Source: an uncultured Spirochaetota bacterium (GTDB taxonomy: Bacteria > Spirochaetota > Brevinematia > Brevinematales > JAOACQ01). Taken from it: a DNA stretch of 64,000 nucleotides. A program made the position numbers and the translations under genes. A model generated the notes under the pieces. The model saw only the letters and a list, made by a program, of their open reading frames with translations, was not told the DNA's origin and searched no databases. The DNA lies in NCBI GenBank assembly GCA_963783575.1, contig CAWAOD010000004.1, forward strand, positions 1 through 64,000, read 5' to 3'. Position 1 is the first letter of the stretch. Each line of letters begins with the position of its first letter. This document shows positions 7,083-27,266 of the stretch, piece after piece.

Positions 7083-7116
7083 GTACAACTCAGTATATAC
7101 ACATTGCGTATATTAC
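7083..7116 (-). promoter_or_regulatory. attI-like site of array A
   Basis: AAC-tcagtatatac..cgtatattac matches AAC-tcgatatatac..cgtatattac at the head of array B. Confidence 0.55.
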
Positions 7117-7182
7117 TCAAAGTTTATAGTGATATATACAACAATTACAAAACTTCAATATTGATTCATACAAATTTAAAAG

Positions 7183-7244
7183 TCTTCCGATCAACGGATA
7201 GACATATTTTCATTATAGCATTTTAATTTATTGGTTGTCAAGAA
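7183..7244 (-). promoter_or_regulatory. Cassette promoter (Pc-like) and conserved leader of array A
   Basis: TTGACA (7241-7236), 18 bp, TGcTATAAT (-10 at 7217-7212) pointing into the array; block conserved at 27210-27266. Confidence 0.75.
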
Positions 7245-7381
7245 CAAAAACCTGAACAGCCGGCCATAAACAGAAGGAATTAGTAGTTTAAGCATTCAAT
7301 TAATTATAAAAGAATCGTTTATAAATCTCCCGGCTGTTCTTTTTTACAAGATTTACGGGATAATACAGCGTAGGAAGAATG

Positions 7382-7515
7382 TTACTTTTGCGAGCTGGCA
7401 GGATGCCAGCGTTCCCGCAGATCTGTCCGAAGCACGGATGCGAGTTACGGAGGGACGCAAAAGTCACATTCTTACGAAGCGTTCTTCCCGTCAATACCCC
7501 GCCCTCTCGGGCGTA
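7382..7515 (+). repeat. GC-rich structured intergenic element with several GGA-loop hairpins
   Basis: Outer stem acttttgcg/cgcaaaagt encloses gctggcAGGAtgccagc and gcACGGAtgc; ccgccc..gggcg hairpin at 7499. Confidence 0.45.
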
Positions 7516-7591
7516 ATTTCTCCCGAACATGATCAGAAAAAAAGCAACCTTTTGGAAGGAAAGTATGAAAACATCGTTTTCCGGAATTTTG

Positions 7592-8869
7592 CTACCCCTT
7601 GTTCCTCTTCTGATACCATCTTGCCAGGTTGATAAGAAGCGACGGAAGCACAATTCTTTCGGTGATATTATTATAACGAACGGTCTGCAACAGATTGCCG
7701 ATATCGGAAACAATTTCATGTATTTCTCCGGTATGCGTATTCGGAATGATTCTTAACGAGAGCTTTTTATATTCTTTGTCGATAAATTCCGTGTAATCGG
7801 ATTTACGGATATATTCCTGGCGGGCAAGGTGAAGATTTCTGTAAAATTCTATCAATTCCTGCATAAACAGCAAAGACAATTTATTATTTTCCTCGGAAGT
7901 GATTTCTTCAATAAAAGAAAATATTTCGGTTTCATACTGGATCTTTGGCGCTATCCTGCTGAAAAAATCTATAACCCTGTCCCTTTTTTTTTGAGTATAA
8001 TGATAAATACCGTCTTCCATATAATCAACCGTATTGAAGAAATTTCCTTTAATTTCAGCGCCGAATATTTTCTTAAGTATTGACGGAGAAAGCTTATTCA
8101 TTTTTATGATGACAGAGCGCGACAAAATTGTCGGCAGTATGTTGTCGATGCTGTTTGCGGTAAGGATAATGATGCTTCTATCTGAAGGCTCTTCGAACAG
8201 TTTCAGGCCGGAGTTTTGAGCTTCCTCCGTTGCATTTTCAAAATTTCCGATGACGCTGACTTTATAATCATACTGTGATTTCAGAGAATTGAAAGCTATC
8301 AAATCACGGACGAAATCTATCGGGATACGTTCTTTTTTTGAGACTTCATCCGATACTATTATGCAGTTTTCAACAAATGCAGTATTTCCAGACATTTCTT
8401 CAATAAATTTTCCGTTGATCAAAATCTCTTCCAGATCATTCCTGAAGTCAGCTATCCCATATGCCTCGGATTTACTTCCTTTCTGTTGACCGGCCTTTTT
8501 GATTTTTTTTAATTTAATGGAGCTTTTACCGGTCTCGTTATATGCGATGGAATTGGATATTCTTCCCAAGAGGTAGTAAAAATACTCAACGGCTTTATTA
8601 TGGAGCGCCTCTACGTTGATATTGTTTATAAAAAATCGTGTTTTCAATGAAAAATCATCATTACGGTAAAATTTAAAATCTGCGGATAAGAAGGGATTTT
8701 TATTCAGAATGTCTCTTGCAAAATCGGCGGCAAGCGAGAATTTCCCGGTTCCCTTATCGCCGAGAAGTATAAGAGTCCGTCCGCGGGTTTGTTCCCGGCG
8801 TATTTTTTCAAGGATCGCGGCGGCCTGGTCCTGGCCGATAATCCCGTTCATAACTGCATTTTCACCCAT
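7592..8869 (-). CDS. holB: DNA polymerase III delta-prime-like AAA+ clamp-loader subunit, with a long insertion
   Basis: IIGQD, GDKGTGK, EAQNSGLKLFEEP, ILPTILSRS. Confidence 0.75.
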   Translation of the reverse strand: MGENAVMNGIIGQDQAAAILEKIRREQTRGRTLILLGDKGTGKFSLAADFARDILNKNPFLSADFKFYRNDDFSLKTRFFINNINVEALHNKAVEYFYYLLGRISNSIAYNETGKSSIKLKKIKKAGQQKGSKSEAYGIADFRNDLEEILINGKFIEEMSGNTAFVENCIIVSDEVSKKERIPIDFVRDLIAFNSLKSQYDYKVSVIGNFENATEEAQNSGLKLFEEPSDRSIIILTANSIDNILPTILSRSVIIKMNKLSPSILKKIFGAEIKGNFFNTVDYMEDGIYHYTQKKRDRVIDFFSRIAPKIQYETEIFSFIEEITSEENNKLSLLFMQELIEFYRNLHLARQEYIRKSDYTEFIDKEYKKLSLRIIPNTHTGEIHEIVSDIGNLLQTVRYNNITERIVLPSLLINLARWYQKRNKG

Positions 8870-8883
8870 ATTGAAATATCCCC

Positions 8884-11175
8884 TTAATCGGAAGACGGTT
8901 TGATATCGATGAGATTCAGCCTGACCTCTTCAACTCCCTGGTATTTATTAATCTCAGGTGATACGACAAGATCGAAAAGCAAAGTCTTTTCTCCCGGGCA
9001 ATTCAGCAAACCCTTCATTTTCTGGGCCCAGTTCCATCCGATGACAGGGATATCCTTTCCGTTTTTTGATATGTTCATCAATGAATGGCTGTTGTTCTTC
9101 CCGATTTCCCTGAACGCCGATATCTTAGCTTTTTTGACTATCAGTTTCGGGACCTCGTTACCGTTACCGGTCGGCTCGAGGATGTTTTCAAGATACCTTA
9201 TCATACTTAGCGTCAAATCATCAGTATTGTCCAGAACAGCGTCTATTGAAATTTCATCCTTAAAATCTTCCGGGTTGAATTGCTCCATATACTCCAGCAG
9301 CCTTGCTTTAAACTGTTCCAGATTATCCGACTTTATTATAAATCCCCCGGCCGACTTATGGCCTCCGAATTGTTCCATCAGATCGGAGGTATACTCAAGC
9401 ATTTTCATAACATCAAATCCAAAAACTGCGCGCACCGATCCGCTCGACATCTTTCCGTCAATTGAGATTATTACAGCCGGAAGCTGGAACTGGATGGAAA
9501 GCCGGTTGGCCAAAAGGCCTGTCGTACCTCGTGTAAATTCCTCCGATGATATGAAAATCAGCTTGTTTTTAACGATAGTCTCCTGATCCAGGAATTTATT
9601 GACTATCCCTACTCCGTCATCCACAACGCCTTTCCGGGTATTATCCTTATTCAGAATTTCCTGGACAAGCTCCTCGGCTTCCTTAATTTTATTGGATATA
9701 AGGAGCTCTACACTGAAACTCGCGTCACCGATCCTCCCCGGCGAATTCAGAAGCGGGGAAATGTTCCAGCTTATTTCCCTGCTTGTTATCTTTTCGGTGT
9801 TAAGATTGACCGCCCTAACAAGAAGAATCAGGCCTATTGAAGAATGGGCGATAAGACGGAGCCCTGTTTTTACAATCGTCCTGTTTTCGCCTGTAAGCGG
9901 CATTATATCGGCTATTGTTCCGATAGCGGCCAGCGGAAGGAATTCGAAATATTGCTCCATAAGCTTATTTGTCCTTCCAATGATAAGCCTTCGGTAAACC
10001 TCAGCGCAGAGTTCGCTGTCGGCGACGCTCCGGTGAAGAAAAGCCGGATTGATATAAACACCAAGGTTCTGGCCAATCGTGACAAGTTTATAATCGTTTG
10101 CCTTTTTCAGCATAACCCTGGCCATTTTTAACGTATCTTCCACAGGGTTGGTCAGAGTTACCTGTAAAATCTTTTTAAGATAATTATTGATAAATTTTAA
10201 ATCGAATTCGATGATATTATGGCCGATGATTTTCCTGTCACCGATAAAATTCAAGAATTTTTCAAGCGCTTCCCGGATCGGAATGCCGTCTTTTTCAAGC
10301 ATCTCATTTGTAAGGCCGTTTAACGCGGTAACTTCAGCGCAGACAGGCGTTGAACATTTTATCAGAGACTGAAATTCATCTATTTTAATGCCGTTTTTTA
10401 TCTTTACCGCGCCGATTTCTATAATCTCATCCTTTGTCGGATTCAAGCCCGTTGTTTCGATATCCAGAAAAACGATCTCAAGATTATGATAATCATTGAG
10501 AACATATTTTTCCGACAAAGCGCAGACAAGCTTAAAAGCGACCGAAGACCCGCAGAGCGTGCGGTACGGATAAAAGTCATCATGCATCTTAGGATTGATT
10601 ATGGCGTAAGCTTTTGGAATTACTTCCCTCGGTTCATGATGGTCGGTTATTATTATATCCAGCCCTAATGAATTGGCATACTCAATTTCCTCAACCGATG
10701 AAATCCCGCAATCAACAGTAATAACAAGATTGAACTCATTCATTGCGGCCCAGCTTATAACCTCCTTTGATATTCCGTAATTCTCAAGCCCTTCGGGAAC
10801 CCGGTACACGACATTGGCATCCATTTTTTGAAAAAACTTATAAAGAATTGCGGTCGCGGTAACGCCGTCAACATCCTTATCGCCGAAAATCAAAATTCCC
10901 TGTTTTTCCTGCAGGGCTTTTTCAATCCTGGATATCGCTTTTTCCATATCTTTAAAATAAAACGGTGAATGGAGATTCAAAACAGACGGCTTGGTATATT
11001 CCTGAACTGCCTCGAAGGTGTTTATCCCCCGGTTGATGAGGATGGATGTAATAAATTCGGGATAATGGAACCGGTCCATAAGCGAATCGAGAATCTTCCT
11101 GTCCGGCCTGGGTATATTCCATATCTTTTCAATATTGAAAATACCCTGAACCGGCTGATCTATTTCTTTAGCCAT
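8884..11175 (-). CDS. recJ: ssDNA exonuclease RecJ with an inserted DEDDh/DnaQ-like domain
   Basis: GDKDVDG, ITVDCG, TDHH, TIADIMPL, GGH motifs; internal LDIETTG/GHNIIEFD/HRSVAD. Confidence 0.9.
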   Translation of the reverse strand: MAKEIDQPVQGIFNIEKIWNIPRPDRKILDSLMDRFHYPEFITSILINRGINTFEAVQEYTKPSVLNLHSPFYFKDMEKAISRIEKALQEKQGILIFGDKDVDGVTATAILYKFFQKMDANVVYRVPEGLENYGISKEVISWAAMNEFNLVITVDCGISSVEEIEYANSLGLDIIITDHHEPREVIPKAYAIINPKMHDDFYPYRTLCGSSVAFKLVCALSEKYVLNDYHNLEIVFLDIETTGLNPTKDEIIEIGAVKIKNGIKIDEFQSLIKCSTPVCAEVTALNGLTNEMLEKDGIPIREALEKFLNFIGDRKIIGHNIIEFDLKFINNYLKKILQVTLTNPVEDTLKMARVMLKKANDYKLVTIGQNLGVYINPAFLHRSVADSELCAEVYRRLIIGRTNKLMEQYFEFLPLAAIGTIADIMPLTGENRTIVKTGLRLIAHSSIGLILLVRAVNLNTEKITSREISWNISPLLNSPGRIGDASFSVELLISNKIKEAEELVQEILNKDNTRKGVVDDGVGIVNKFLDQETIVKNKLIFISSEEFTRGTTGLLANRLSIQFQLPAVIISIDGKMSSGSVRAVFGFDVMKMLEYTSDLMEQFGGHKSAGGFIIKSDNLEQFKARLLEYMEQFNPEDFKDEISIDAVLDNTDDLTLSMIRYLENILEPTGNGNEVPKLIVKKAKISAFREIGKNNSHSLMNISKNGKDIPVIGWNWAQKMKGLLNCPGEKTLLFDLVVSPEINKYQGVEEVRLNLIDIKPSSD

Positions 11176-11186
11176 TTTGCCTCCAT

Positions 11187-11335
11187 GGGTTCACTGAAAA
11201 ATGAGTTAAAATTTGAAAACTATAACCAACCTTTTTTAATTGCATTTATAACTCATTGTTATAAAATAGGATATGACACCAATAGAATACTGTTTATTAA
11301 ACTTTTTAAGTTTTATGCTGATTTTCAGTGAACCC
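11187..11335. mobile_element. 149-bp MITE, copy 1
   Basis: TIR gggttcactgaaaa/ttttcagtgaaccc; 6-bp direct repeat CTCCAT; second copy at 27433. Confidence 0.9.
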
Positions 11336-11374
11336 CTCCATGGTAAAACAGCCGGGAAAGATTCATCCCGGTTT

Positions 11375-12301
11375 CTATTTTTCAAGTACAAGCGAGAGCA
11401 GTGCCATTCTTATAAATAAACCGTTATGAGCCTGACGAAAATAAGCCGCCCTCGGATCGCTGTCAACCTCATATTTTATTTCATCAACCCTTGGGAGCGG
11501 ATGCATCACAATTGAATTTTTTGATAAACAGTTCATTATGTTATTATCGATTATATAAATTCCCTTTGTTTTTTCATATTCTTCCATGCTTGAGAATCTT
11601 TCACGCTGAATCCTTGTTTGATAAATTACGTCAACTTTTGCGGCGACTTCTTCAAGACTGTCGGATTCCTCAAAATATACCCCATGCTTTTTCAGATGTT
11701 CTTTGATGTCTTCTTTCATTCTCACATTCGGTGGCGCCACGAAATAGATTTTAATATTCCGGTATTTTGTCAGCAGATACGCCAAGGATCGGACAGTCCT
11801 TCCGTTTGCAAGGTCTCCGACCATGGCAATCGAAATATCATCTATCCTGCCTATTTCTTTATCAATCGTGAAAAGATCCAGTAATGCCTGCGTTGGGTGC
11901 TGACCCGTGCCATCCCCGGCGTTGATAACAGGGACCTGTGAGACTAGACTTGCCTGCCTGGCGGCGCCAGTTTCGAAATGACGTATGACAATCACATCCC
12001 CGTATCCGTTCAGGACACGGATAGTGTCCTCAAGCGTTTCACCCTTTGCCGCGGATGAAAAGCTTGCCGCGTTTTCAGTAGAAATAACGCTGCCTCCAAG
12101 CTTTATCATAGCAGATTCGAACGATAGACGGGTTCTTGTAGAAGGTTCGTAAAAAAGAGTGATAAGGATTTTGTTTTTAAGAACGGTTATTTCCTGGGAG
12201 CGCTTTTCCATCAATCTTGCCGTTTCAAAGATGTTATCCAGGTCTTCCCGGGAAAACTGCTGTGATTCAATGATATGATGCAATTTCATAGCATTCTCCA
12301 T
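11375..12301 (-). CDS. pyrB: Aspartate carbamoyltransferase catalytic subunit
   Basis: FYEPSTRTRLSFE, HPTQALLD, MHPLPR. Confidence 0.96.
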   Translation of the reverse strand: MENAMKLHHIIESQQFSREDLDNIFETARLMEKRSQEITVLKNKILITLFYEPSTRTRLSFESAMIKLGGSVISTENAASFSSAAKGETLEDTIRVLNGYGDVIVIRHFETGAARQASLVSQVPVINAGDGTGQHPTQALLDLFTIDKEIGRIDDISIAMVGDLANGRTVRSLAYLLTKYRNIKIYFVAPPNVRMKEDIKEHLKKHGVYFEESDSLEEVAAKVDVIYQTRIQRERFSSMEEYEKTKGIYIIDNNIMNCLSKNSIVMHPLPRVDEIKYEVDSDPRAAYFRQAHNGLFIRMALLSLVLEK

Positions 12302-13008: not shown

Positions 13009-13174
13009 CAGGTTCTTTTCAAACCATAGTTACCGTAAAGCCTCGGTAATGTGGCTTTCACACTTTTTTTGAATGATCAAAAGAAAAAGTGTGCCATGGT
13101 GTTGTTATTCCAAATTTTATAAACGATTCTTAAAGAGCCTCAATTTGCAGTCCTAGCGGCGATCCCTTCGTCAA

Positions 13175-14865
13175 CAGACTGTGTGAAAACTCAGTAAAAT
13201 TTTATAGTAAAATCGATTAATTATACAAAAACTCCATTTTTTGATATATTTTTCAAGCTAAAAAAATCTTAGTTTAAAAAATCTATCCGAATACGATAAA
13301 CGATGGTTTATTAGCATCAAACCAGAGTCATAAGTCTCTTTATTCCCAATATATTCAATACTTTTATTAAATTATGAATGAATCCTGCCAAACTGGATTC
13401 CGTCAGAACGCCATCCTTTCCCTTCATTAAAAAATAACTGTAACCCATATTCCTTTTTATCGATCCAAATGGATGTTCACATATCTCTTTCCTTTTCTCT
13501 ATGATCTTTTTCCCGGCTTCAGAACGAATTTTCCTCTTGAAGTTCTCAATTTCTTCTTTTCTAACTGGTACTTTGATACTTCGTCCTTCCACGCTTTCAG
13601 TACACTTATTTCTTACTTCACATTGGCTGCATAAGCCGCACTTGTACCTGACTATCTCTTTTCCTCCATTGACCTTCTCTACTTTTTTCCCATTTCTCAC
13701 TAATGGGTTTCCCTCCGGACAATAATAAACATTTTGTCCCGGATCATATTTGAATTTATCAACCTGGTATTCTTCAGCAGGTACTCCTTTATTATCTTCT
13801 TTGCCTCGAATCCTTGCCTTATGTCCGTCATCCGGATTCGGCATATATACGTTATGTCCCTTATCTATACATTCCAGTATCTGCGGTTCGCTGTAATAAC
13901 CGGCATCCGATACTTTGACCGTTTCAGTCTCTACCTTAAGCTCGTCCTTTATTTCTTCTACTCGGTCACACATTCCTGCCATCTGTTTGATATCATTGTT
14001 TTCATTCGTCACATCAATCACCACAATCAGTTTATTCGCATCATCTACTGCCATCTGCAGATTATATGCAATGTCGGATTTCCCTTTATCATTCATAAAC
14101 CGGCTTTCCGGGTCATTTGAATAATATTTCTCCATTTCAGGATTTCCCTCAAAAATCTTTTTAATAGCCTCAACTTTATCCTTTTTTGTTTTCATTTTCT
14201 TTAAACGTTCCGCTATCTTTCCGGAAAGAAATTCAAATTCATTCTTTTCTTCCTTATCGTTCTTATCCATCTCGTTCAAATATTCTTCGATCTTTTGATC
14301 TATTCTATGTATGATTTCTTCTATGTTTTTCCTATGATAAACATTGTTATTGTGGTTTTGCGCACTGATCTTGGTTCCATCAATTCCAACAACGTCAAAT
14401 GATAAAAGCCCGGCTTTATGACATATCTTCAAAAATTCTCTGAATATCGACTGTATTCCCTTCTTATTATCTTTCCTGAAGTCGGCAATCGTCTTGAAAT
14501 CCGGCGCTAGTCGTCCAGTCAGCCACATCAACTCTGTGTTTCTTCGGCACTCTCTCTCTAATTTCCTGCTTGTCCTGATTTTATTCAAATATCCGTAAAT
14601 ATAGATTTTTAAAAGTATTTCGGATTTATATGAACTTCTGCCGGTTGATGCTTCTTTTACTTTAAAACCAACTCCTTTCATATTTAGCTTATCAACAAAA
14701 ATATCTATAAACCTTACCGGATCTTCTTCTCCTAACAGATCTTCCAGTGTTTCATTGAACAGAACTATCTGATCCCTTGATTCTCCCTCAATATGCTTCA
14801 TCTTTTACTCCGATTATTTTTGTTCTAATAATTATAGCATATTTACTGTGTTTTCACACAGTCTG
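13175..14865 (-). mobile_element. IS1182-family element
   Basis: Perfect 16-bp IR cagactgtgtgaaaac; CAA direct repeat; inserted in a cccttcgtcaagctcaggg REP-like motif. Confidence 0.92.
13317..14801 (-). CDS. IS1182-family transposase
   Basis: LLKIYIYGY, SRKLERE, PDFKTIADFR, IDGTK, DAGY, EHPFGSIK. Confidence 0.93.
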   Translation of the reverse strand: MKHIEGESRDQIVLFNETLEDLLGEEDPVRFIDIFVDKLNMKGVGFKVKEASTGRSSYKSEILLKIYIYGYLNKIRTSRKLERECRRNTELMWLTGRLAPDFKTIADFRKDNKKGIQSIFREFLKICHKAGLLSFDVVGIDGTKISAQNHNNNVYHRKNIEEIIHRIDQKIEEYLNEMDKNDKEEKNEFEFLSGKIAERLKKMKTKKDKVEAIKKIFEGNPEMEKYYSNDPESRFMNDKGKSDIAYNLQMAVDDANKLIVVIDVTNENNDIKQMAGMCDRVEEIKDELKVETETVKVSDAGYYSEPQILECIDKGHNVYMPNPDDGHKARIRGKEDNKGVPAEEYQVDKFKYDPGQNVYYCPEGNPLVRNGKKVEKVNGGKEIVRYKCGLCSQCEVRNKCTESVEGRSIKVPVRKEEIENFKRKIRSEAGKKIIEKRKEICEHPFGSIKRNMGYSYFLMKGKDGVLTESSLAGFIHNLIKVLNILGIKRLMTLV

Positions 14866-15125: not shown

Positions 15126-15681
15126 TCATTTTTTTGTCGGCTCGTAGTAAAGAGCTACTGCACTACAACCAAATGTTTTTGTTTTTAAGAGTTGAAGATT
15201 AACTCTATCCTTGACGTTTTTAAATAATGGCAAGCCGCTTCCTAAAATAATTGGCTGAACGTCAAGCTGGTATTCATCAATTAAGTCAAATTGCGTTAAG
15301 GCTACTATTAAACTTGGGCTGCCAACTAAAATGTTTTTACCCGCTTGTCGCTTGAGTTCTAAAACATCTTCTTTAATGACTTCCTTTTCCAATTTTGTAT
15401 TTTTCCAATCAACATTTTTCAGCGTTCGTGAAAAAACAATCTTTGAAATATTGTCTATTAATACAGCAAATTCATCTGTTGGTTTGTTACCAGTAGGATT
15501 TTTTACCACAGATGGCCAATAACTTTCCATAAGCTGAAATGTTATCCTTCCAAAATATAATGGTGTCTGCGTTACTAAATAGCTCATTGTAATGTTGAAG
15601 TATTTCATCATCTGCAATCATTGCCGTGTGGTCGCAAAACCCGTCCAATGTCATATTGATTGCTGCAATTAGTTTTCTCAT
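15126..15681 (-). pseudogene. RibD-C/DHFR-like protein, frameshifted; followed by R'' site GCATAAC (15117-15123)
   Basis: MRKLIAAINMTLDG in one frame continues as FGRITFQLM...PIILGSG in another. Confidence 0.82.
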
Positions 15682-15692
15682 TTTATTTCTTC

Positions 15693-16286
15693 TTAAGCTC
15701 CAATAGTACCTGTCTTGACTTTTCCGGCTTGTTTGTAATTAGCAATAATCACTCCACTTGGTGTAACCGAACTTTCTATTAATGAAAATGCCGCCGGGAT
15801 CACGCCATTGATAAATAATTTTTTTCCTTTACCAAGAGTCAACGGGTAAATTTTGAGCCAGAGTTCATCCACTAAATCATTCTTAAGTAGCAGCTGGATG
15901 AGCTTAGCACTGCCCCAAACTTTAATGTCGGAGCCTTTTGAATTTTTGAGTTTTTCGATATCTGCCAAGCTTTTGAGGAAAACTGTGTTTTTCCAATCTG
16001 ACTTTTTCATGGTCTTGGACATGACGTATTTTGTGACATCATTGATACCTGGCCATCCATTTTCATGCTCTGGCCAGTAGGAGGCAAAAATCTCAAATGT
16101 TTTTCTGCCCAAAAGAAGGTCTGCAGGTTTCATCTGTTTTTCCATGACCTTACCAATAACATCGTCACCATAAGGCGCAACCCAACCGCCATATTTGAAA
16201 CCGCCTGATGTATCTTCCTCAGGTGCCCCAGGTGCTTGCATTACTCCATCTAGTGTAATCATTGATATGACGATTATTTTTCTCAT
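15693..16286 (-). CDS. RibD-C/dihydrofolate reductase-like protein
   Basis: MITLDGVMQAPG, LLGRKTF, LVDEL..PLTLGKG. Confidence 0.9.
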   Translation of the reverse strand: MRKIIVISMITLDGVMQAPGAPEEDTSGGFKYGGWVAPYGDDVIGKVMEKQMKPADLLLGRKTFEIFASYWPEHENGWPGINDVTKYVMSKTMKKSDWKNTVFLKSLADIEKLKNSKGSDIKVWGSAKLIQLLLKNDLVDELWLKIYPLTLGKGKKLFINGVIPAAFSLIESSVTPSGVIIANYKQAGKVKTGTIGA

Positions 16287-16532
16287 GTCCCGCCTCCTTC
16301 GTTAAAATTACATCCTCAAATGTTTAATGTCTAAAAACATTTTATCATTATCCTATTTTATTAAACCGTCTTTAGGTCAATTAATAAATACTTTAAGAAT
16401 TCTTTTTAATCAAGTAATTCAAACAAAATATTTACCAATAATCAACTAACCGAAAAATATAGCGCGATTTCATATCGTTTCTTTCGCCAGGACGGTGAAA
16501 CTATTTGCTATTATTAAGCCCACAAGTATTCC

Positions 16533-16616
16533 GTTTAACGGTACGTCCGAGTAGAGAAATCAGTATTGGTAGTGTCCTCTTAGCTTTGCGCAGCTCAGCT
16601 TGAACACCAGTTAGGC
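16533..16616 (-). repeat. attC-like site, 84 bp, with a classical-type first half
   Basis: Minus strand GCCTAAC-tggtg-TTCAAGC ... GTTAAAC. Confidence 0.6.
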
Positions 16617-16647
16617 CGCAGAGTGCTGTTGCGGCCTATAACCCTGC

Positions 16648-17034
16648 TTATTGGCCGGCCGGCGGTTGCCACAGTTCTACTTTGTTTCCTTCCGGATCGA
16701 TGACCCATGCAAACTTTCCATAATCGGATTCATCAATCTTTTCGAGAACGTTACAGCCTTCTTCTCGCAAGGCTTTGACCAATCCCTGAAGGTCTTCTAC
16801 TCTATAGTTGACCATGAAAGGAGCAGAGCTCGGAGCAAAGTGCTCGCTTTCTTGCGGATCGATCAACCACGCAGTTGTACCTGCAACAGGCTTGTCCTCG
16901 GCGTCGGTCCAATCGAAGGCAGCTCCGCCCCATTCTTGGACATCGATTCCTAGGTGCCGCTTATACCAAGCCTGTAGCGCCGGAGCAATCTTGGCCTTGA
17001 AGAAGATGCCGCCAATACCAGTGACTCGTTTCAT
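16648..17034 (-). CDS. VOC/glyoxalase-family protein, GC-rich
   Basis: MKRVTGIGGIFF...YGKFAWVIDPEGNKVELW. Confidence 0.9.
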   Translation of the reverse strand: MKRVTGIGGIFFKAKIAPALQAWYKRHLGIDVQEWGGAAFDWTDAEDKPVAGTTAWLIDPQESEHFAPSSAPFMVNYRVEDLQGLVKALREEGCNVLEKIDESDYGKFAWVIDPEGNKVELWQPPAGQ

Positions 17035-17344
17035 GAGACCTCCTATTTTGATATACTATTTATTGAATCTTCCATAATTTTATTCATCTGTATGTCTTCT
17101 TCAGAAACACTGGCTACAGTATCATCTCCTCTTTACTTGGGCATTTTTTTAGTACAGCTTAATAATAAATTTAACATCGAAACAAACATAATTATAAATC
17201 TTTTTCATCTTTACTCCATAATAAGAAGCATCATCTTTGTTTTAAAAAACTCATCATAGTCAATTAAATCCATATCATTAATACTTTCTGGAATATAATT
17301 CCTCTCCATGCTTTTTTTTGCAAATAATACCAAAGGGGGATAAT

Positions 17345-17710
17345 TTACAATCTTCTTTCTTCCATTAAAGCAAATATATTTTCATCCATATCCTTGAAAA
17401 AGGCTAGCCAGATTTCTTTATCATTGTATTTGGCTGTAAAATGCGGTTCTCTTATTGTTTTTACGCCTTTGTTTTTAATTTTCTCAAACTCGGAATTAAT
17501 TTCGTTTACCATAAAATATATTATCATTCCGAAAGGCTTTTTTTGATCCGATTCATTTTTACCGAGCATCAATCTTATTCCGTTTAAATCAAAAAGGGCA
17601 ACATTATTATCATGGAAAAGGTATTTCAATCCGATCGTATCCCTGTAAAATAACATCGATTTCTCGATATTAGAAACCGTTATTGCAATCTGGCCGATTT
17701 TGTCTATCAT
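17345..17710 (-). CDS. VOC/glyoxalase-family protein
   Basis: IGQIAITV..FYRDTIGL...AFFKDMDENIFAL. Confidence 0.88.
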   Translation of the reverse strand: MIDKIGQIAITVSNIEKSMLFYRDTIGLKYLFHDNNVALFDLNGIRLMLGKNESDQKKPFGMIIYFMVNEINSEFEKIKNKGVKTIREPHFTAKYNDKEIWLAFFKDMDENIFALMEERRL

Positions 17711-18185: not shown

Positions 18186-18935
18186 TTACTCAACCTCCTT
18201 ATTCAAATTTTGTATTCTGTAAGATTCTCCGCTCAAGTTATAAATATTTGAATGATGTAAAAGCCTGTCCAGAAGAGCTGTTGTCATAATCGGGTCTCCC
18301 ATCATTTCAGCCCAATCCTGAAATCCCTTATTCGATGTTATCACTATCGATGTCTTTTCATACAATTCACTTACAAGACTAAAGAATAGATTTGCCTCCT
18401 TCTTTTCGATAGGTGTGTAACCTATCTCATCAATGATTAATAAGTGTGACTTCATCATCCGGTTCAGCCTGAAAGAAGAACTTCTCTGGATGTCCGTTGT
18501 TTTAAGAAACTTAATGAGAGTAGTCATCCTTTCAAAGCAGACAATATATCCCTTTTCAACTGCCCGGATTCCGATACTAATTGACAGATGCGTTTTCCCC
18601 AGCCCCGGAGACCCAAAGAACAACAGGTTATGATGATTATCAATCCAGCGGAAATCCAATAACTGTGAAACATCCATTTTAGATATTCCATTCACTTTTT
18701 CAAAATTAAAACCTTCCACATCTTTGCGGACTGGGAAATGTGCTCCTGCCATATTCCGCTGAAAACGTTTTTCCACTCTATAATTCAATTCCAGAGAAAG
18801 CAGCCTCTGCAAAAAACTCAGATAAGACTCTTTCGCCTTTTCAGCCTCGCCGATTTCATCGTCAATCCGTTTAATCATCCCCTTCAACCCGAGAGTTGCA
18901 AGCTGCGTTATGATTTGTTCTCTTATCTTCAACAT
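18186..18935 (-). CDS. istB: IS21 helper ATPase IstB
   Basis: GSPGLGKT, LLIIDEIGY, TSN, ALLDRLLHH. Confidence 0.95.
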   Translation of the reverse strand: MLKIREQIITQLATLGLKGMIKRIDDEIGEAEKAKESYLSFLQRLLSLELNYRVEKRFQRNMAGAHFPVRKDVEGFNFEKVNGISKMDVSQLLDFRWIDNHHNLLFFGSPGLGKTHLSISIGIRAVEKGYIVCFERMTTLIKFLKTTDIQRSSSFRLNRMMKSHLLIIDEIGYTPIEKKEANLFFSLVSELYEKTSIVITSNKGFQDWAEMMGDPIMTTALLDRLLHHSNIYNLSGESYRIQNLNKEVE

Positions 18936-20482
18936 TGCCGGCCCCCAATGGAACTACAGAGTCTCTGGTATTTCCCGATGTCTGATTTGGCTACTTCCAG
19001 ATAGTGTTCAGGATTCATAAGTGGCCTGACTATCTTTTCTACATTCATAGGTATTTCTAAATGTTCTATTTTCAGACAGTTCCGGTAATTATCCCATAAA
19101 TCCTTCATTGAGTAACTATCATTATCCAGACAGTTTGAGATCGCTTGTGTCAGCTTATCTGTATCAATTATCTTGTCCCTGAAGTATTTTCTTCCGGAAA
19201 GACATTGGTCCCTTACATAACGATTGAACTTCCTGAAATTACATTCAAGAAAATCCTTCCAGCCGGGAATATCAAAGTACCCGCTTACTTCTTCTTTCAA
19301 TAACTGCACAGTCTTTCCCATTTCCCGGATCATTGCCCTGTTGGTTACAATCTGCCCCGGAATCACTGAAAGCCGGTATTCGGCGATTTGCTCACCCGTA
19401 ATCCTGTCAAAGACAAAAAGCAGGCTGTCAGTTTTGTAAATGTCAACCGAACCGTTCCTGTATTTTTCAGGTATATCATACTGGCTTGTGCCCACAGCGA
19501 TCCGGCATTTGTCACTCACACTGCGAGCTTCCCTTGCACCGATCCTGTCCTTACGGAATATAGAATTCCTGACCGGCCGGAGATATGGCCTTTCCGTTTC
19601 AATCTCTATCAGCGGTATTTTCATGGTTGCCTGGGATATTCTCCCGTTGGCTTTTCTTTCCAGCCATTTCAACAGGCTTTCATCTGCTTCCAATAAACTG
19701 TTGAACTCCCTGACCGCAAAAAAACTATACTTGATGAATTTGGCCACATTTTCGATCTTTCCCTTGCTTTCCGGGTCTGAAGGCCGGCATACATACAATT
19801 TAAGACCCATTTCATCTTTGAAATACTGAAAGTCTTTCGTGTAGATGATATCGCCGGAGTTCTCACTCACAACCATCGTGCAGTCCTGATCGATGACAAG
19901 TTCCTGCGGTATCCCGCTCATATATGCGAAACAGTCCAATAGATGATTGATCAGGTCTTCTGTCCGGAATGGCCTCTCCTGGAGGGCCGCATACTTAAAA
20001 CGACTGGCGGATAACACCGCGGCAAATATGTAATACCTTCTGCCATATCTGTCGGTATATTGACCGAAATCAAGCTGGAGCTGCTTTCCATATGGCATGT
20101 CCGGCACTTTTGTGTAATACCGGCGCTTTTCATTCAAGGTAAGCTGCCCGCTTTCAATCAGGTAATGTACGAAATTCCTCATCGTATTTTCATTCGCCGG
20201 AAGTTTGCCTTTTACCTCCAATAAATAGTCATACAAAGCAGACATATTCAGCCGGATGTAATCATTCTTTGCATATACTTTCAATATGTCTGTTTTTATT
20301 CCTTCGAATTCTTTTTCACGGAAAGAGAATTCCATCAGGCTTTTCTGGTATTCGGAATCGTTCATAGCCCAATATTTTCGGACTGTCTTAATATCTATTG
20401 ACAGTTCCCGGGATACACCATTTTTACTTTTCCCCAAAAGTTTCAGTTTTTTTATGTCCTGATACATAATATTTTTCACCAT
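18929..20482 (-). CDS. istA: IS21 transposase IstA
   Basis: QLDFG, PQELVID, PESKGKIE. Confidence 0.94.
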   Translation of the reverse strand: MVKNIMYQDIKKLKLLGKSKNGVSRELSIDIKTVRKYWAMNDSEYQKSLMEFSFREKEFEGIKTDILKVYAKNDYIRLNMSALYDYLLEVKGKLPANENTMRNFVHYLIESGQLTLNEKRRYYTKVPDMPYGKQLQLDFGQYTDRYGRRYYIFAAVLSASRFKYAALQERPFRTEDLINHLLDCFAYMSGIPQELVIDQDCTMVVSENSGDIIYTKDFQYFKDEMGLKLYVCRPSDPESKGKIENVAKFIKYSFFAVREFNSLLEADESLLKWLERKANGRISQATMKIPLIEIETERPYLRPVRNSIFRKDRIGAREARSVSDKCRIAVGTSQYDIPEKYRNGSVDIYKTDSLLFVFDRITGEQIAEYRLSVIPGQIVTNRAMIREMGKTVQLLKEEVSGYFDIPGWKDFLECNFRKFNRYVRDQCLSGRKYFRDKIIDTDKLTQAISNCLDNDSYSMKDLWDNYRNCLKIEHLEIPMNVEKIVRPLMNPEHYLEVAKSDIGKYQRLCSSIGGRQC

Positions 20483-21227: not shown

Positions 21228-21348
21228 GATTGGTATGATCTATAGAATATTTAACAGATTATAACTCACAAATAATAAATCAATTATCCACACTAATTCT
21301 TCAGATGTCGGATTAAAGAAAAATATAAATTTCTGGTTGAGCAAAGAC

Positions 21349-21594
21349 GTACAACGTTGCAGCCATAAGAATCCCACAAGCCTTAGAGCTAGCCCCGCGC
21401 GCTTAGGCTTGCAAATGTGGTGAGCCCGTAAACAATGATTTCTATTTTATTAATCATCATAGTCAATTTGAACTCCTTCCTCTTTATCAAAAAGTAAATA
21501 CGGGCGAACCCGAGGAGCGCAGGAAAAACTTTTTCTTCTTCTCCGTTATGCCCCGAAAAGTTTTTTCGAGCACCGAAGAGTTATAGCCGCGGTT
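21349..21594 (-). repeat. Long attC-like site (about 250 bp), copy 1
   Basis: Highly similar to 25734-25985; AAC...tatagccgcgGTT ends. Confidence 0.82.
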
Positions 21595-23285
21595 GAGCCT
21601 GTAGAAAAAGTCCGTCATTCATGTACAGAATATCGTATATACTTTAAAATATATTGGAAATAAAATCAAGAGGTAAAAGCAATTATGGCAAGATATAAGA
21701 AAGTTAATTACGATCAAATGGAACTCATTCCTGTATCATTCGACGAGCAGATAATTCCCGGAACCTTCGAATATACATTGAGCTTTCTTGTCGACAATAA
21801 AATTGATCTTAAAATCTTTGAGAATAAGTATAAGAACGACGCTACCGGTGCCCCGGCTTATAATCCGTGGGTTATGCTGAAGATAATACTCTACAGCTAT
21901 TCCCGCGGTATTTTTACATCACGTGAAATCGAGTATTTGTGTAAAACGAATATTATAGCCAAAGCCCTTTCTGCCAATTCAATACCGCACTTTACTTCCA
22001 TCGCCGATTTTGTATCATCGATGAAAAATGAGATAAATAACGTTTTCCTGAATATATTAATGGTTTGTGACGAACTGAACCTCATAGGCGGTGACATGTT
22101 CGCGCTGGACGGGTGTAAATTATCATCGAATGCATCGAAGGAATGGAGCGGAACATTTAAGGATTTGAGGAAGAAAAAAAGAGAAGCTGGAAAACCTGGT
22201 TAAGGAAATGCTTGATGAACATGAAAAGCGTGATCAGGATGGCGGTTTTCCTGAGAAGAAGAAGGAAAAGGATCTTGCAAGAATTGAAAAAATTTTAAAG
22301 AAAGCGGAAAAGATAGAAAAGTTTCTGGAAAGTGAAAAACCCAAAGACAAGGCACGGCATGGCGAAAAACAGTCCAATGTCACTGACAACGAGAGTGCGA
22401 AAATAAAGAGTTCACATGGTGTTATCCAGGGCTACAACGGACTTTCTGTAGTGGATTCGAAATATCAGGTTGTGGTATATCCGGAAGCTTTCGGCAGCGG
22501 GTCGGAAGGAGAATTCCTAAAAGGCATGGTCCGTAAAACAAAAGTAATGATGGGAAATCTGGGAAAAGATATAAGCGGTGGGATAGTTCTGGCGGACACC
22601 AATTATTTCAGTGCCCTGTGATACCGGATAATCATTTCCGTAAGCGGGATGCACGTTTCAGGGATATGGACAGGTTCAAACCTGCAAAGAAAGGACAATA
22701 TACAATTGATGATTTTCAATATGATCCGGAAAATAATGTTTATATATGCAAAAAAGGAGAGGAACTCAGGTTCAGATATAACCATACTGTTAATCATATT
22801 ACATACGCGAAATATATCTGCCGGTTATCGGCCTGCCGTAATTGTCCGTTCCGGAAAGACTGCTTAAAAAAGGAGACGACAAAATACCGCACATTGCAAA
22901 GGCCGTTAAATGCAGATAACAGACATTACTCGGATGAGATGAAAAAGTTCATAGACAAACCTGAAGGCAGAAAGCTTTATGCGAAAAGAATGGCTATAGT
23001 TGAGCCTGTATTCGGTAATATCAGGGCATGTAAAGGTATGGATCGATTTACGTTGAGGGGAAAGGGAAAAGTGAATATTCAATGGGTATTATATAATACT
23101 GTGCACAATATCGGGAAAATTCAGGTCTATGGAGGTATATAATGGCATAGTGATGGAATAAAAACAGTTTTGCCGGTAAATTCAGCCCGGTTTTATAAAA
23201 ATAAAGTAATTCCAGACAGATCAAAAAAAACAAACTGTTTGGGAATGTAGGATTATTACCTGAAATTAACTTTTTCTACATGGCC
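21595..23285 (+). mobile_element. IS1182-family element inserted at the GTT core
   Basis: IR tgtagaaaaagt/actttttctaca; GTT(G) duplicated on both sides. Confidence 0.88.
21685..23142 (+). pseudogene. IS1182 transposase in three pieces
   Basis: MLKIILYSY/LDGCK, GYNG/ADTNY and VEPVFGNI motifs split across ORFs 21685, 22208 and 22618. Confidence 0.88.
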
Positions 23286-23701
23286 GTTGTACGAAGGGCA
23301 CGACATATTATAAAAACCGCCACGGACGGCGGATATTAATTTATATGCTATAAAATTATTCTAATGAATTATTATTAATTACAAAATTATTTAGAATTTG
23401 TAATAGACTTTTTTGACCACAAAATTGTATTCCTTTTTTTAGGTAATATAAATGATAACCTGGTTTAACTAACTTACTGAATACTAGGAAATAAAGGTCT
23501 TGTTTAGAATAAAATTTGATTAATTCATTAAAAACTTCTGAATATAATTTAAAATAACCAATTTCACATAAAGCGCATAAAGAATAGATTGCTTTATTAG
23601 ATAAAGAATTTGTTATTTTGTCAGTAATTTCATTTTGAACATCATTATAAGATTCTTTTTCGAATCTATTAACAAAGTCTAAATATAATATTAAATAATT
23701 A

Positions 23702-25565
23702 GTGCCTGAACGGAAACTCCAATTTTAAAAAATTTCTAAATCAAAAGCTCAGTTATGCTATTTTCCTGATTACAAAAATTTTTCCTGAAACAAAACTTAT
23801 TAAATACTTTGCACCGTATCTAAGAATTAATACAAAAAAAACCAAAATATAACATTTTAAAAGCTTATGGGCAGACTATACCCTTAGATATCAAATTAGC
23901 CGGAAAATCTATGCTGCCTTCATAATTTTCTTTTTTCCCGGGAGGCGTGCCTCTCTTTCCTGCCTCTTTATCTCTTTCTGCACAAGGATATGTCCCATAA
24001 TCTGAATGTTCCTGGCGACAAAAGACAAACTGACATACCTCTTAAACCCAACTATTCCATGGTCAAGGCATCTGTCCAAACCATGATTTTCCATGGCGCT
24101 GATCCCTGACTCCACAGCTCTATGTGCCCGTTTTGCCACCCGGTACTCCTCTGTTTTTTCCCGCTCCTTTTCATCAATCGTTAGCTTGCCTTTCCTTGTC
24201 ATAATCAGTTTATCCACCATTTTTCCCAGTTTGCTCTTGTTTTCAGGACTGTAAAATCCTTTATCATAGCTCACCTGTCTGATGTTATTAAATACAGAAA
24301 TAGTTTCTTCCATAATACTAACTGCCACCGCTTCGTCAGTCTTCTTTTCCATAACCATGTGATTAAGCATAAAACCAAACTGATCCTGCACCACACAAAC
24401 CCGGACTCCAAGTTCCTGTGGTACTCCGGCTTTTCCTTTACTGATCCACTCTGTATGAGGCTCGAAAATCGAAAATATTTTCTCTTCGTGATGGATAACC
24501 TCACCTTTCAGTACCCGTCTGTTGACTTGATCCATCAGCTTTAGAGCCAGCCTAATATAATGTTCTAATGTCATTTCCAATGGTATATTTGTAACCATCT
24601 TTAGAGAATCTGTTACTTTCAAGAGAATATTTTCGATATCCTTGAGATAATTCCTGTATTCCTTTTTTATCCGTTTGTCACTTTTACCTATCTTTACTTG
24701 ATCTTTTGAAGTCGATCGTTTCAGCCTTTGTATGCTCATAACTTTTTTTTTAAGCTTCCCGATAGTATGTTTCCCCTGGCGAAAACCTGTTAGACCTGCA
24801 TTTTTAAAGAATCCGACTATACCTGTAATTACCTTTCTCATGGCATCAAACAGAAGACTGATATCTGTCGGGAAATGAACGTCTGTTTCAACAACAAAGG
24901 AATCAACCTTCACTTTTAAACCTTTTTTTGCTTTTTCCCCAATAAGATCGTGGCCGGCTTTAACAACCACTTCATTAATCTTTGATAGTATTTCAGGAGT
25001 GAATAGAGAAATGTTCTCCCTGAGTGTCTGCAAAGCATATCTATCGACAGTAAACTCAGTTTTGCCAAGCATCTGCCTTATAGCTTTGTGATTATTCGCC
25101 TGATCCTGGAGTTTGTCATAGTCCCAGTTGCAATTCAATCGCAGCATTCCCATCACAAAGATTTCCCATATACTCATCCCCTTTCTTCCGATTCTTTTCT
25201 TTTTTTTATCTGGTATCATTTCCTCAAATATCTTGAATATTTTGTCCTTGATTTCAGGATTGCAATATATATATTTCAGGCCCATAAGCAGCTTTGGAAC
25301 CTCGTCACGGCAAGTTAAATCAATCACTATTTCACTGATATCAACTTCACCGATCTTTTTCTGTACTTCTTCGTTTTGTCTCATAAATTTTTCCTCGAAG
25401 ATTTAAAAAATTATATTTTTGTCGGGTTGATGCATGTCCATATCTGATAATATATTATAGCATTTTTATTCGGTTTTGTATTGCTTTTTTATTCAAATCT
25501 TCAATTTTATTTTATGCCATAATTCCCTTGCTAGTACTGCATTATCTGTATTTCCGTTCAGACAC
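23702..25565 (-). mobile_element. IS5-like/ISNCY insertion sequence
   Basis: IR gtgYctgaacggaaa; 6-bp direct repeat TAATTA. Confidence 0.88.
23909..25384 (-). CDS. DDE transposase (IS5-like/ISNCY)
   Basis: VDSFVVETDVHFPTD, YDKGFYS, RAVESGIS. Confidence 0.9.
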   Translation of the reverse strand: MRQNEEVQKKIGEVDISEIVIDLTCRDEVPKLLMGLKYIYCNPEIKDKIFKIFEEMIPDKKKKRIGRKGMSIWEIFVMGMLRLNCNWDYDKLQDQANNHKAIRQMLGKTEFTVDRYALQTLRENISLFTPEILSKINEVVVKAGHDLIGEKAKKGLKVKVDSFVVETDVHFPTDISLLFDAMRKVITGIVGFFKNAGLTGFRQGKHTIGKLKKKVMSIQRLKRSTSKDQVKIGKSDKRIKKEYRNYLKDIENILLKVTDSLKMVTNIPLEMTLEHYIRLALKLMDQVNRRVLKGEVIHHEEKIFSIFEPHTEWISKGKAGVPQELGVRVCVVQDQFGFMLNHMVMEKKTDEAVAVSIMEETISVFNNIRQVSYDKGFYSPENKSKLGKMVDKLIMTRKGKLTIDEKEREKTEEYRVAKRAHRAVESGISAMENHGLDRCLDHGIVGFKRYVSLSFVARNIQIMGHILVQKEIKRQEREARLPGKKKIMKAA

Positions 25566-25733
25566 TAATTAATTGAACTTGCTGAACCTTCATTGATATT
25601 AACATGAACAGAACTTCGGGCTTGTACTACTATACCGTCAGAGACTTCTATTTCTAACATAATCACCTCTCTATGATTTTTCAATCAAAAATATTTTCAG
25701 TTAACTTGTTTTAATTAACCCAGCAACGATTGC

Positions 25734-25985
25734 GTTTAACGGTGCGGCTATACGACATTTGCAAGCCTTAGCACCAGCCCCGCGCGCTTAGGCTTGCAAA
25801 TGTGGTGAGCCCGTAAACAATGATTTCTATTTTATTAATCATCATAGTAAATTTGAACTCCTTCCTCTTTATCAAAAAGTAAATACGGACGAACCCGAGG
25901 AGCGCAGGAAAAACTTTTCTCTTTCTCCTCCGTTACGCCCTGAAAAGTTTTTTCGAGCACCGGAGTGATATAGCCGCGGTTAAGT
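25734..25985 (-). repeat. Long attC-like site (252 bp), copy 2, intact
   Basis: Minus strand ACTTAAC (RYYYAAC) ... GTTAAAC (GTTRRRY); terminal stem aaccgcggctata/tatagccgcaccgtt; internal hairpins. Confidence 0.85.
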
Positions 25986-26846
25986 GAAGTGTTTGCCATG
26001 TATTCTAAACATTTTTGTATCAATAATAAACTCAAATCCAGTTACTTTCAACCAGCTATTAATGCCTGTAATTAGCACAAAAATGATTTCAATATAATAA
26101 GATAATAATTTAGTATTTATTTTATAATATTTAAGACATTTTACTAAGTTATATTTGGGTATATCTCCAAAATCATCAACAATAAATTCATCTTTTGACA
26201 AATGTTTTAATAAAATATATCGATCAGGAAATTCTTTATTTTCTGGATTCATATCTTTTCCACTTTCTAATTTATAACCTTGTGCAACTTCATGTGTGTC
26301 GATATACAATTCATTTATTTTTTGTGCAGAATCAAGTTCTCTCAAACATTTTAAAACACTTATTATAGCAATAATTTGTTCATCTTCCATTTTTTCAAGA
26401 ATAAATGGATTTTTTAATAATTCTTGCAAAGCTTTTTCACTTATCTCCCAATGCTTAAAAACTTGAAAACCTAGATATTTGTTAGTACTAAGTTGATTTT
26501 CTAATATTTCTTTCTTTAATGAAAGAAAATTATTGATAGCTTTACTTGAGAATTCTTTCTTTTCTAATGAATACACGATTTTTTGAAGTTGATTTAATAC
26601 TGAAAGAAATTCACGATCTACAAGCATTTTAGCATAATCAATAATTTCTTTATTCAATTTTTTATGAGAGAACGATTTTACTGTTTCATAAAAAAAATAT
26701 AGTAAAGGTATAGCAATAAAAGCTGTAGCAATGTTAATAATTAAATCATGTAATTTTATATTAAGAGAAGATAGAAAATATAATATAAAACCAATAATTA
26801 AAGCAACAAGATATGGCAATGTTTTTAATAATATTTTTTTAAACAT
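25980..26846 (-). CDS. Hypothetical protein with two N-terminal TM helices; first cassette (B1) of array B
   Basis: 288 aa from ATG 26846; stop TAA lies within the R'' site; very AT-rich. Confidence 0.75.
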   Translation of the reverse strand: MFKKILLKTLPYLVALIIGFILYFLSSLNIKLHDLIINIATAFIAIPLLYFFYETVKSFSHKKLNKEIIDYAKMLVDREFLSVLNQLQKIVYSLEKKEFSSKAINNFLSLKKEILENQLSTNKYLGFQVFKHWEISEKALQELLKNPFILEKMEDEQIIAIISVLKCLRELDSAQKINELYIDTHEVAQGYKLESGKDMNPENKEFPDRYILLKHLSKDEFIVDDFGDIPKYNLVKCLKYYKINTKLLSYYIEIIFVLITGINSWLKVTGFEFIIDTKMFRIHGKHFT

Positions 26847-26883
26847 TAATTTATTCCTATTAATAAAAAACGGCAAACATTTC

Positions 26884-26925
26884 ACTTAACTCGATATATA
26901 CGAAGTTTACTTCGTATATTACCCC
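26884..26925 (-). promoter_or_regulatory. attI-like site of array B
   Basis: GTTAAGT core next to palindrome atatacgaagt-tt-acttcgtatat; homologous to 7083-7116. Confidence 0.55.
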
Positions 26926-27209
26926 TAAAAACCTGTTTTTTACGAAGTAATTAATAAATATTGTTTATAAAAAATCAGCGGACTTTGTATATCCATAATT
27001 GCTTTATTACTAACATAAGTGTAAATCTCTGTATTTTTAATGCTTTTAAACAATAGTTCTTATTATATCGTAAATCAGTTTTGTAATTTAAACATTATAT
27101 TATAACATAGTTGATCCGGAATAGTATCACCCATAAGGGGGGATATGGATAATCAAACTTTTAATGATTATAATGTTATACAATTATTAAACCGCAAAAA
27201 CACTTAAAT

Positions 27210-27266
27210 TCTTCCGGTCAACGGACATAAATATTTTTAGCATTTTAATTTAATGAGTGTCAAGAA
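27210..27266 (-). promoter_or_regulatory. Conserved leader and promoter of array B
   Basis: TTGACA (27263-27258), 18 bp, TGcTAAAAA; tcttccggtcaacgga box shared with 7183. Confidence 0.65.

Follow-up and report, generated by a model that had tools for sequence, protein, structure and literature searches.

The stretch of DNA analysed here, referred to as the window, comprises the first 64,000 nucleotides of contig C4 (C4:1-64000) in the genome of an uncultured Spirochaetota bacterium of the order Brevinematales (labelled G000), a 4.9-Mb assembly of 18 contigs that is 89.85% complete with 4.91% contamination. It carries two minus-strand gene arrays, A and B, which are separated by holB-, recJ- and pyrB-like genes (7592-12301) and which each begin with a leader combining a promoter block with a site that resembles the integron attachment site, attI. 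A first-pass annotation had proposed that these leaders belong to a distributed integron, a docking platform copied around the chromosome with no intI gene next to it. We followed this proposal through G000, 11 genomes of its family, further genomes of the order (19 others in the recombinase search and 23 others in the attI search) and 151 genomes of the phylum, with gene names taken from Pfam and NCBIfam and some array junctions read by eye.

Leader A contains a candidate cassette promoter (Pc) on the minus strand (7212-7241), in which TTGACA (from 7241) and TATAAT (to 7212) are spaced by 18 bases, matching the consensus at 12 of 12 positions with an extended -10 TG. Just past the predicted transcription start lies a short box, CCGTTGATCGG (7187-7197, minus strand), and further on an attI-like site (7085-7139, minus strand; 32.8 bits), composed of the dyad ATATACG-N5-TGTATAT followed by GA-GTT, with the crossover G at 7089. 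Leader B, also on the minus strand, has the same order of parts: a promoter candidate with a degenerate -10 (TTGACA-18-TAAAAA, 27234-27263), a shortened stretch ahead of its box CCGTTGACCGG (27214-27224), a long spacer in common with the leader on contig C13 (26964-27389; 88% over 433 bases), and an attI-like site whose dyad has a 10-base centre (26887-26941; crossover G at 26890; 29.8 and 31.4 bits in two attI searches). The features first described at both array starts were recovered, namely AAC at 7087-7089 and 26888-26890, each followed by tc..tatatac...cgtatattac, the minus-strand promoter reading of both copies, and the pair of blocks of about 60 bases at 7183-7244 and 27210-27266, which share 80% identity across 66 bases (BLAST E value in the 4.9-Mb genome, 1.4e-9).

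A profile search of G000 revealed 14 copies of the promoter block on 6 contigs, scoring 45-69 bits, with the next match at 13 bits; the profile was built from those same 14 copies, so that the bit scores are circular while the gap to the next match is not. Copy number, score gap and BLAST E value rule out a chance origin of the block. Its layout is TTGACA-18-TATAAT followed by CCGTTGRYCGG, with the -35 hexamer and the CGTTG of the box invariant in 14/14 copies, and divergence among the copies in the 20 bases 5' of the -35 and in the sequence past the box. Genome-wide, CGTTG follows 13 of the 36 TTGACA-18-TATAAT sites, which likewise speaks against chance. The box had been taken for a hairpin, a function for which the case is weak: the stem has only 4 pairs, and since these are broken in some copies while CGTTG never varies, a sequence motif is likelier.

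The box could be an operator. An SOS-like genome-wide regulon was rejected, as 9 of the 20 box-motif matches in the genome (the other 11 lie at leaders) have no consensus promoter ahead of them and the attI dyad, with at most one mismatch, was found only at attI sites (8/8). The box resembles the right end of G000 attC sites (CC-GTTGTACG) and also the first bases of T-box leaders, and in a metagenome pattern scan, which returned 81 stretches, 9 of the 16 tested were T-boxes whose 5' start equals the box motif. A T-box origin of the leader was nevertheless discarded, because no T-box (RF00230, comprising a full stem I, T-box and antiterminator) was found at the 4 leaders scanned and the attI and attC profiles had no match in the 80 metagenome loci examined, where the box profile gave one trivial match. 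The Rfam scan of those 4 leaders yielded a single chance-level match, and the sole T-box match of the genome sits elsewhere, with a short tandem repeat (AGCTATGCTGATTAAATT, about 3 copies; C16:256877-256950) within its end. Likewise, a crossover at TTGACA itself was dismissed, since the G that it needs at the -35 edge is present in 1 of 14 copies.

In the attI-like sites, one or two dyads (ATATACG-N5-CGTATAT) precede GA-GTT. A TAT..GAGTT core lies within 500 bases of the block in 10 of the 14 leaders, and a degenerate core in two more, with 48-345 bases between block and crossover, such that promoter block and attI are separate modules. An attI profile produced 11 matches above 19 bits, these being 10 leaders and a site linked to a recombinase gene on contig C5. 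Three weaker sites without a block were found at C13:214031, C14:80478 and C16:32447; two box-less G000 sites were, like the relative site G009:C75, included in training the attI model, so that their scores are circular. The comparison of the leaders with an attI beside a genomic recombinase, proposed at the outset as a check, came out in favour, with identities to the linked site of 51/53 for C9:382288 and C5:114975, 44/53 for leader A and 32/53 for leader B.

Evidence that these solitary sites have been used comes from the cassettes behind them. A long attC site, the recombination site of integron cassettes, lies within 3 kb on the same strand at 9/14 leaders and on the opposite strand at 0/14, compared with 0.87% of 20,000 random positions. 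Two more leaders, including leader A, are followed by the left end of an attC and then by the end of an insertion sequence (IS), so that 11 of the 14 copies have an attC or an IS-split stub downstream, in agreement with the earlier suggestion that the leader heads cassette arrays. At five leaders (5/10 of those with a clear attI), the end of the first cassette carries a complement of 8-10 bases to the attI core: 9 bases in window array A, 10 in window array B, 9 on C16, 10 at C9:382k and 8 on C13, with 10 at the recombinase-linked site; among 5,000 random GTT sites, 317 (6.3%) had an 8-base complement within 2 kb. The complementary cores that site-specific insertion at G-TT would leave were thus found at the recombinase-linked site and at 5/14 leaders. 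First cassettes differ at every leader. Moreover, a two-gene cassette of 2,243 bases occurs, with one mismatch, in both the C5 array and a solo C9 array, where it starts at the CC-GTT crossover of two different attC sites.

The attC sites themselves follow the inverted-repeat pattern of integrons, AAC-N5-L''...L'-N5-7-GTT. A complete one of 252 bases lies in array B (25734-25985, minus strand) and belongs to the same long G000 family as the attC sites of the recombinase array; its bottom strand pairs both ends (z -4.98), and the minimum-energy fold of the first C5 attC, one of three attC sites tested, left the ends unpaired. The G000 sites span 160-253 bases with internal hairpins (window 25734-25985; C5:458726-479355), the range given in the accessible text of PMC4909258 being 57-141 bases. 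Boxed leaders have 17 of the 39 long-attC features behind them, the recombinase has 12 and a weak site lacking the box has 1. At least two attC sites without an integrase close by, the definition of attC clusters that have no integron-integrase (CALINs), were found behind leader B and the leaders on C16, at C9:129k and at C9:382k; the others have one attC or stubs.

The sole array-linked recombinase-like gene of G000 (C5:457129-458190) is followed after about 55 bases by attI and then by 12 long-attC features on the same strand. An attI adjacent to an integrase-like gene was found at this C5 locus only and at none of the 14 leaders; no promoter block is present there, and the window contig C4 has no tyrosine recombinase match. 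Intact relatives of the recombinase occur in 5/11 family genomes and 0/19 others of the order (E 1e-30). The wider family accounted for 4,307 of 8,000 candidates at E 1e-60 and was found in 26/151 phylum genomes, and a dyad-plus-GAGTT site also stands, by eye, behind the recombinase in several distant genomes (G062, G045, G101).

Neither G000 nor 30 relatives reached the cut-off of the integron integrase model TIGR02249. The relative in family genome G011 scored 237.7 bits on NF040815 (cut-off 220), its best NCBIfam match, and 212.2 on TIGR02249 (cut-off 265). The spacing from KDR to HxLRH is 61-62 residues in the 16 loci measurable by motif, of 28 in the phylum. An AlphaFold model predicts a separate beta-beta-alpha-beta-beta-alpha N-terminal domain (mean predicted local distance difference test, pLDDT, 88.4), and a sub-threshold HARP match (E 1e-4 to 3e-3) was obtained in 3 of 6 N-termini scanned; PF22823, as precomputed on homologues, gave no match in G000. 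In a fold search, the best structures were 2a3v (VchIntIA, IntI4) and then XerA, with no HARP structure among the matches listed. By profile and structure, the family recombinase is thus closest to archaeal XerA-like proteins (NF040815) and VchIntIA. It differs from VchIntIA in being about 42 residues shorter in the IntI-specific region and in its extra HARP-like N-terminal domain, and from XerA-like proteins in heading an attI and cassettes rather than standing alone. Judged by these comparisons, the recombinase is not a canonical IntI and is Xer-like with a HARP-like N-terminus. Elsewhere in the genome, at C5:3150-32400 and C15:6500-28000, tyrosine recombinase genes form five tandem pairs (about 450 plus 350-370 residues), two of which are apparently duplicated.

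Among related genomes, the leader recurred only in part. A pattern search found the promoter block in 0/11 family genomes, and it is not present at the recombinase loci of 6 relatives; the attI model matched 7/11 family genomes at E 0.05 and 0/23 others of the order at E 0.001. In 4/11 family genomes (G005, G009, G011 and, weakly, G001 at C10), attI sites lie in regions without a recombinase gene as fetched; those at G005:C57 and G001:C10 and both in G011 were outside the training set. The G005:C57 site is an exact 67-base copy of that genome's linked attI, located behind an unrelated gene, with a sharp left edge at G-TGATATACG of the upstream dyad; it heads a two-gene block with an attC arm and has no promoter block. 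The G009:C75 site, near a contig end, is overlapped by TTGACT-17-TATAAT. In G011, solo sites lie at C2:2028k and C4:357k, and the C2 array shares a cassette with each of two recombinase arrays: its first cassette, of 585 bases (99.3%, ending at the attC), is found in one of them, and a 1,181-base cassette (99.7%) in the second. By sequence, then, the shared trait of the family is the solo attI, and the promoter block is specific to G000 in these searches.

Two further observations concern G011. The C4 site (G011:C4:357077-357640) is attI-like, is followed by one gene and stands behind a short repeat, flanked by genes named by eye as response regulator-like and sensor kinase-like. Over the recombinase and the 5.8 kb upstream of it, contigs C1, C6 and C7 of that genome are 99.7% alike, with different first cassettes on C6 and C7. 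We counted these copies as one locus, of which they are probably haplotypes; if so, the differing first cassettes would show ongoing shuffling in that population.

Taken together, these comparisons indicate that the leaders are probably stand-alone platforms for docking cassettes, which one distant recombinase would have inserted in trans. Each leader would combine a strong sigma-70 promoter candidate, the short conserved box and an attI; the enzyme encoded at C5:457129-458190, or a missing copy of it, would have inserted cassettes at the solo attI sites; the promoter would drive the first cassettes; and one cassette pool would be spread over about a dozen separately promoted arrays. A distributed cassette system that appears integron-like in its working, while not a canonical member, is well supported by the sequence comparisons. 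The original notion of a distributed integron therefore stands as regards the 14 copies, the attI homology and the attC sites, and needs amending in that the enzyme is not a canonical IntI and that promoter and attI are separate modules.

Several observations weigh on the other side. Three of the 14 leaders have no attC evidence, two of the 14 blocks have no clear attI, and no core complement was found at the cassette end for 5 of the 10 clear attI sites. Nine long-attC features lack an upstream attI; as eight of them (C10:73167-86297) and the ninth (C12:24122-24378) have an IS21 element upstream, they may be fragments moved by IS. The block shared by the C5 and C9 arrays ends in an IS copy, beyond which the attC bodies differ, implying that homologous recombination took part. 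About 8 of the 14 leaders share upstream repeats resembling miniature inverted-repeat transposable elements (MITEs), which could explain spread without a recombinase. The recombinase gene has two frameshifts in the G000 assembly, both in short homopolymer runs. In a gap control, 31 IS1182 copies (46,035 bases) and 13 IS630 copies (13,884 bases) aligned gap-free, and gaps relative to the query copy occurred in 12/13 istB and 2/4 ISNCY copies, the inspected istB genes being full length; on this rough control, the frameshifts may be real. Reads from two DNA sequencing runs with small shares reached neither frameshift and contained no joints, and so favour neither side. The enzyme also lacks the IntI insertion, having 25 residues (query 251-276) where VchIntIA (181-248) has 67, and this additional domain is held to be necessary for attC recombination. 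Finally, at the stated completeness, another enzyme could be missing from the assembly.

The alternative that survives best, which we consider unlikely, treats the block as a mobile promoter that was copied through repeats, IS elements or homologous recombination together with the attI and cassettes behind it, the solo sites being unused afterwards. Several block pairs, 80-93% identical over 50-69 bases, attain the identity of at least 80% over at least 50 bases before unrelated genes that marks mobile promoters, the first genes behind the blocks being unrelated to one another, and promoter reuse is documented in the accessible text of PMC3575422. The variable spacers that separate block and attI, the lack of the block in all 11 family genomes and the MITE-like repeats, which are also found away from leaders, fit this alternative too. 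Co-duplication, however, would give shared first cassettes, and each leader has a different one, five with an intact core complement; G011 has one cassette at two diverged attI sites, and the unit copied in G005 is attI alone. The related idea that the leader is itself an IS end or MITE, named at the outset as the case that would overturn the proposal, did not hold: the leader has no terminal inverted repeats and no fixed transposase link, target duplications not having been searched for. Only a minority of blocks have an IS or other high-copy element in the 900 bases upstream of them, and its kind varies; in repeat-free copies, homology begins at the -35. RAYT-like Y1 transposases gave two partial matches in the genome, neither flanked by the main upstream repeat.

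Still less probable is that numerous integrons were once complete and all lost their recombinase genes, leaving the leaders as relics and the arrays as fossils. Deletion of the gene would leave promoter and attI behind where, as seen by eye in some relatives (L037, L039), a promoter-like TTGACA follows the recombinase stop and precedes attI; at least two recombinase loci are present in G011, and loss of intI is one of the CALIN origins proposed in the accessible text of PMC4889954. Against this, a search of the 900 bases 5' of each of the 14 blocks gave no recombinase remnant (best E 0.016), the block is absent from the G000 recombinase locus and from those of the 6 relatives, and the exact 67-base copy in G005 is sharply edged at the upstream dyad of attI. 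Strain mixing or mis-assembly of one variable locus, which the contamination of the 4.9-Mb assembly and the three probable haplotype contigs of G011 might suggest, is very improbable, since all 14 leaders are internal to contigs of 238-743 kb, have upstream genes that differ among them (holB-like, leuD-like, spore photoproduct lyase, SMC, cellulase, asd and others) and share stretches that are only about 70-93% identical, not near 100%.

If the leaders are docking platforms served in trans, their spread itself calls for explanation. In the scheme that we favour, at somewhat less than an even chance, an attC would recombine imprecisely with a secondary or accessory site upstream, excising a circle that carries attI, with or without the promoter, and the circle would then re-insert at an attG site in the genome. 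The left edge of the G005 copy, at a G-T within a half dyad resembling a binding site, fits such excision followed by insertion elsewhere. Duplication driven by repeats or IS elements is about as likely. In G000 the leader edges are uninformative on this point, the events being old, and the two recombinase frameshifts together with the many IS-split attC sites suggest that the network may be frozen in this strain. More tentative still is the possibility, which we regard as rather doubtful, of a second, non-IntI class of integron, with a Xer-like enzyme carrying a HARP-like domain and very long attC sites, that propagates its own docking site via excised circles carrying attI, with or without a promoter, and so founds new arrays, ready for expression, around the chromosome.

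The content of the two arrays, all on the minus strand, can be summarized as follows. In array A, the first cassette (5231-7001) encodes a defence-like pair of GmrSD_N (DUF262) and RiboL-PSP HEPN proteins (Pfam) and is followed by an attC left end (CGTACAAC, 5163-5170) and an 86-base IS1182-type end (5085-5170 in all), the remainder of the attC being lost. Beyond it lie a Phd/YefM antitoxin and ParE toxin, a bacterial type II toxin–antitoxin (TA) pair (4371-4992; Pfam), and distal genes for GrpB, a nucleoside hydrolase and a HAD hydrolase (1911-4123; Pfam) with eroded attC-like junctions seen by eye. In array B, the first cassette gene (25980-26885) matches no Pfam family; behind the complete attC come an ISNCY transposase (23909-25384; NCBIfam), an attC split by a broken IS1182-like element (21349-23293; left end about 23290, body 21349-21603), an IS21 element (istA, istB; 18186-20482; Pfam) and distal genes for two glyoxalase/VOC and two RibD_C proteins (15126-17710; Pfam), with a truncated short attC at about 16580-16620 (junction by eye). 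An IS1182 transposase gene, with 31 full copies in the genome, lies at 13317-14801.

The IS1182-like element inserts exactly at the AAC of attC left ends, leaving AAC on both sides (window 5085-5170 and 21349-23293), and its junctions with attC on G000 contigs C5, C9, C10, C12, C13 and C16 (16 right-hand and 9 left-hand matches) lie nearly all at cassette ends. Its transposase scored 216.6 on NF033551, below the cut-off of 270. From these junctions, it looks like an attC-targeting IS group outside IS1111, to which the known attC-targeting group IS1111-attC belongs. A small element that carries a replication protein of phage type (PF05144; C9:628700-630600, L062 7459-9579) lies just beyond the array of the C9:632954 leader.

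Nested repeats resembling repetitive extragenic palindromes (REP) or MITEs occur in the window at 7252-7520, 11187-11335 and 27326-27900, with 10-20 genome copies each; they have GAACAGCCGG ends, GGGTTCACTGAAAA ends and a GCCCGAGAGGGCGG hairpin, and no mobilising enzyme was identified for them. The mosaic 5' of leader A (7252-7520), of whose approximately 10-20 genome copies many lack a leader, includes an 85-base element with GAACAGCCGG ends (7254-7339), and a 149-base MITE-like repeat (27433-27581) is 95% like 11187-11335 and has about 20 genome copies. Two tandem 222-base copies, 78% alike, lie at 36210-36653 within the gene at 36004-37497.

The usual description of an integron places one docking site next to the enzyme, and a single first position per integron means that few cassettes are strongly expressed at once. 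The 'reverse' sedentary chromosomal integrons of Treponema (PMC3607928, PMC4909258; accessible text) have the same recombinase orientation toward attI and cassettes as the G000 locus, and likewise the GTT crossover, AAC...GTT attC ends, core complementarity, promoterless cassettes, and TA and defence genes; they differ in that the G000 recombinase has no IntI insertion, and one attI per integron is described for them (PMC3607928). CALINs and single attC sites lacking integron-integrases (SALINs) also lie apart from an integrase, and service by a distant one has been proposed (PMC4889954, 10.1101/2022.09.11.507474). As far as the accessible text of these and related reports extends, CALINs are defined by attC alone, with four listed origins, one being insertion by a distant integron, Pc is unable to drive them, and attI, unknown for most integrons, is not searchable (Cury 2016, PMC4889954); insertion at attG sites of the genome, excision at places other than the insertion point (Loot, 10.1101/2022.09.11.507474), off-target rearrangements at secondary sites (10.1101/2022.04.29.490043) and mobilisation of CALINs in trans (10.1101/2025.06.18.660453) have also been reported. 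In contrast to CALINs so defined, the G000 arrays have a repeated promoter of their own as well as an attI that is a homologue of the enzyme's, so that they could be acceptors as well as donors. Putative mobile promoters (Nijveen, Matus-Garcia, van Passel; PMC3575422, accessible text) resemble the G000 block in placing one homologous multi-copy promoter before unrelated genes, and differ in that the block is linked to a recombination site and has cassettes as its downstream genes.

The literature searched, which did not extend to supplements with possible CALIN head sequences, contained no description of a scattered promoter-plus-attI arrangement and no link between a HARP domain and integrons; the accessible parts of PMC3146285, PMC9892861, PMC8618304 and 10.1101/2022.02.06.479319 describe no solo promoter-plus-attI heads. 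The arrangement thus appears undescribed in that literature. With an enzyme under the IntI cut-off and attC sites above the published range, standard tools would probably miss or under-call the system.

If the reading of the leaders as docking platforms is true, a dozen promoter-plus-attI docks would lift the first-position limit, allowing cassette capture and expression at many loci, and would suggest where some CALINs come from, in a form that can be tested, Cury 2016 having left their origin open; because attI is unsearchable without a cognate sequence, some CALINs may carry an unrecognised attI. The solo and linked attI sites, the long attC sites and the intact relative recombinase bear on the question of attC recombination by an enzyme that has no IntI insertion. 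Should the more tentative propagation of docking sites also hold, a single enzyme would serve first positions across the whole genome as a network, and many 'CALINs' would be acceptor platforms, fully equipped but hidden.

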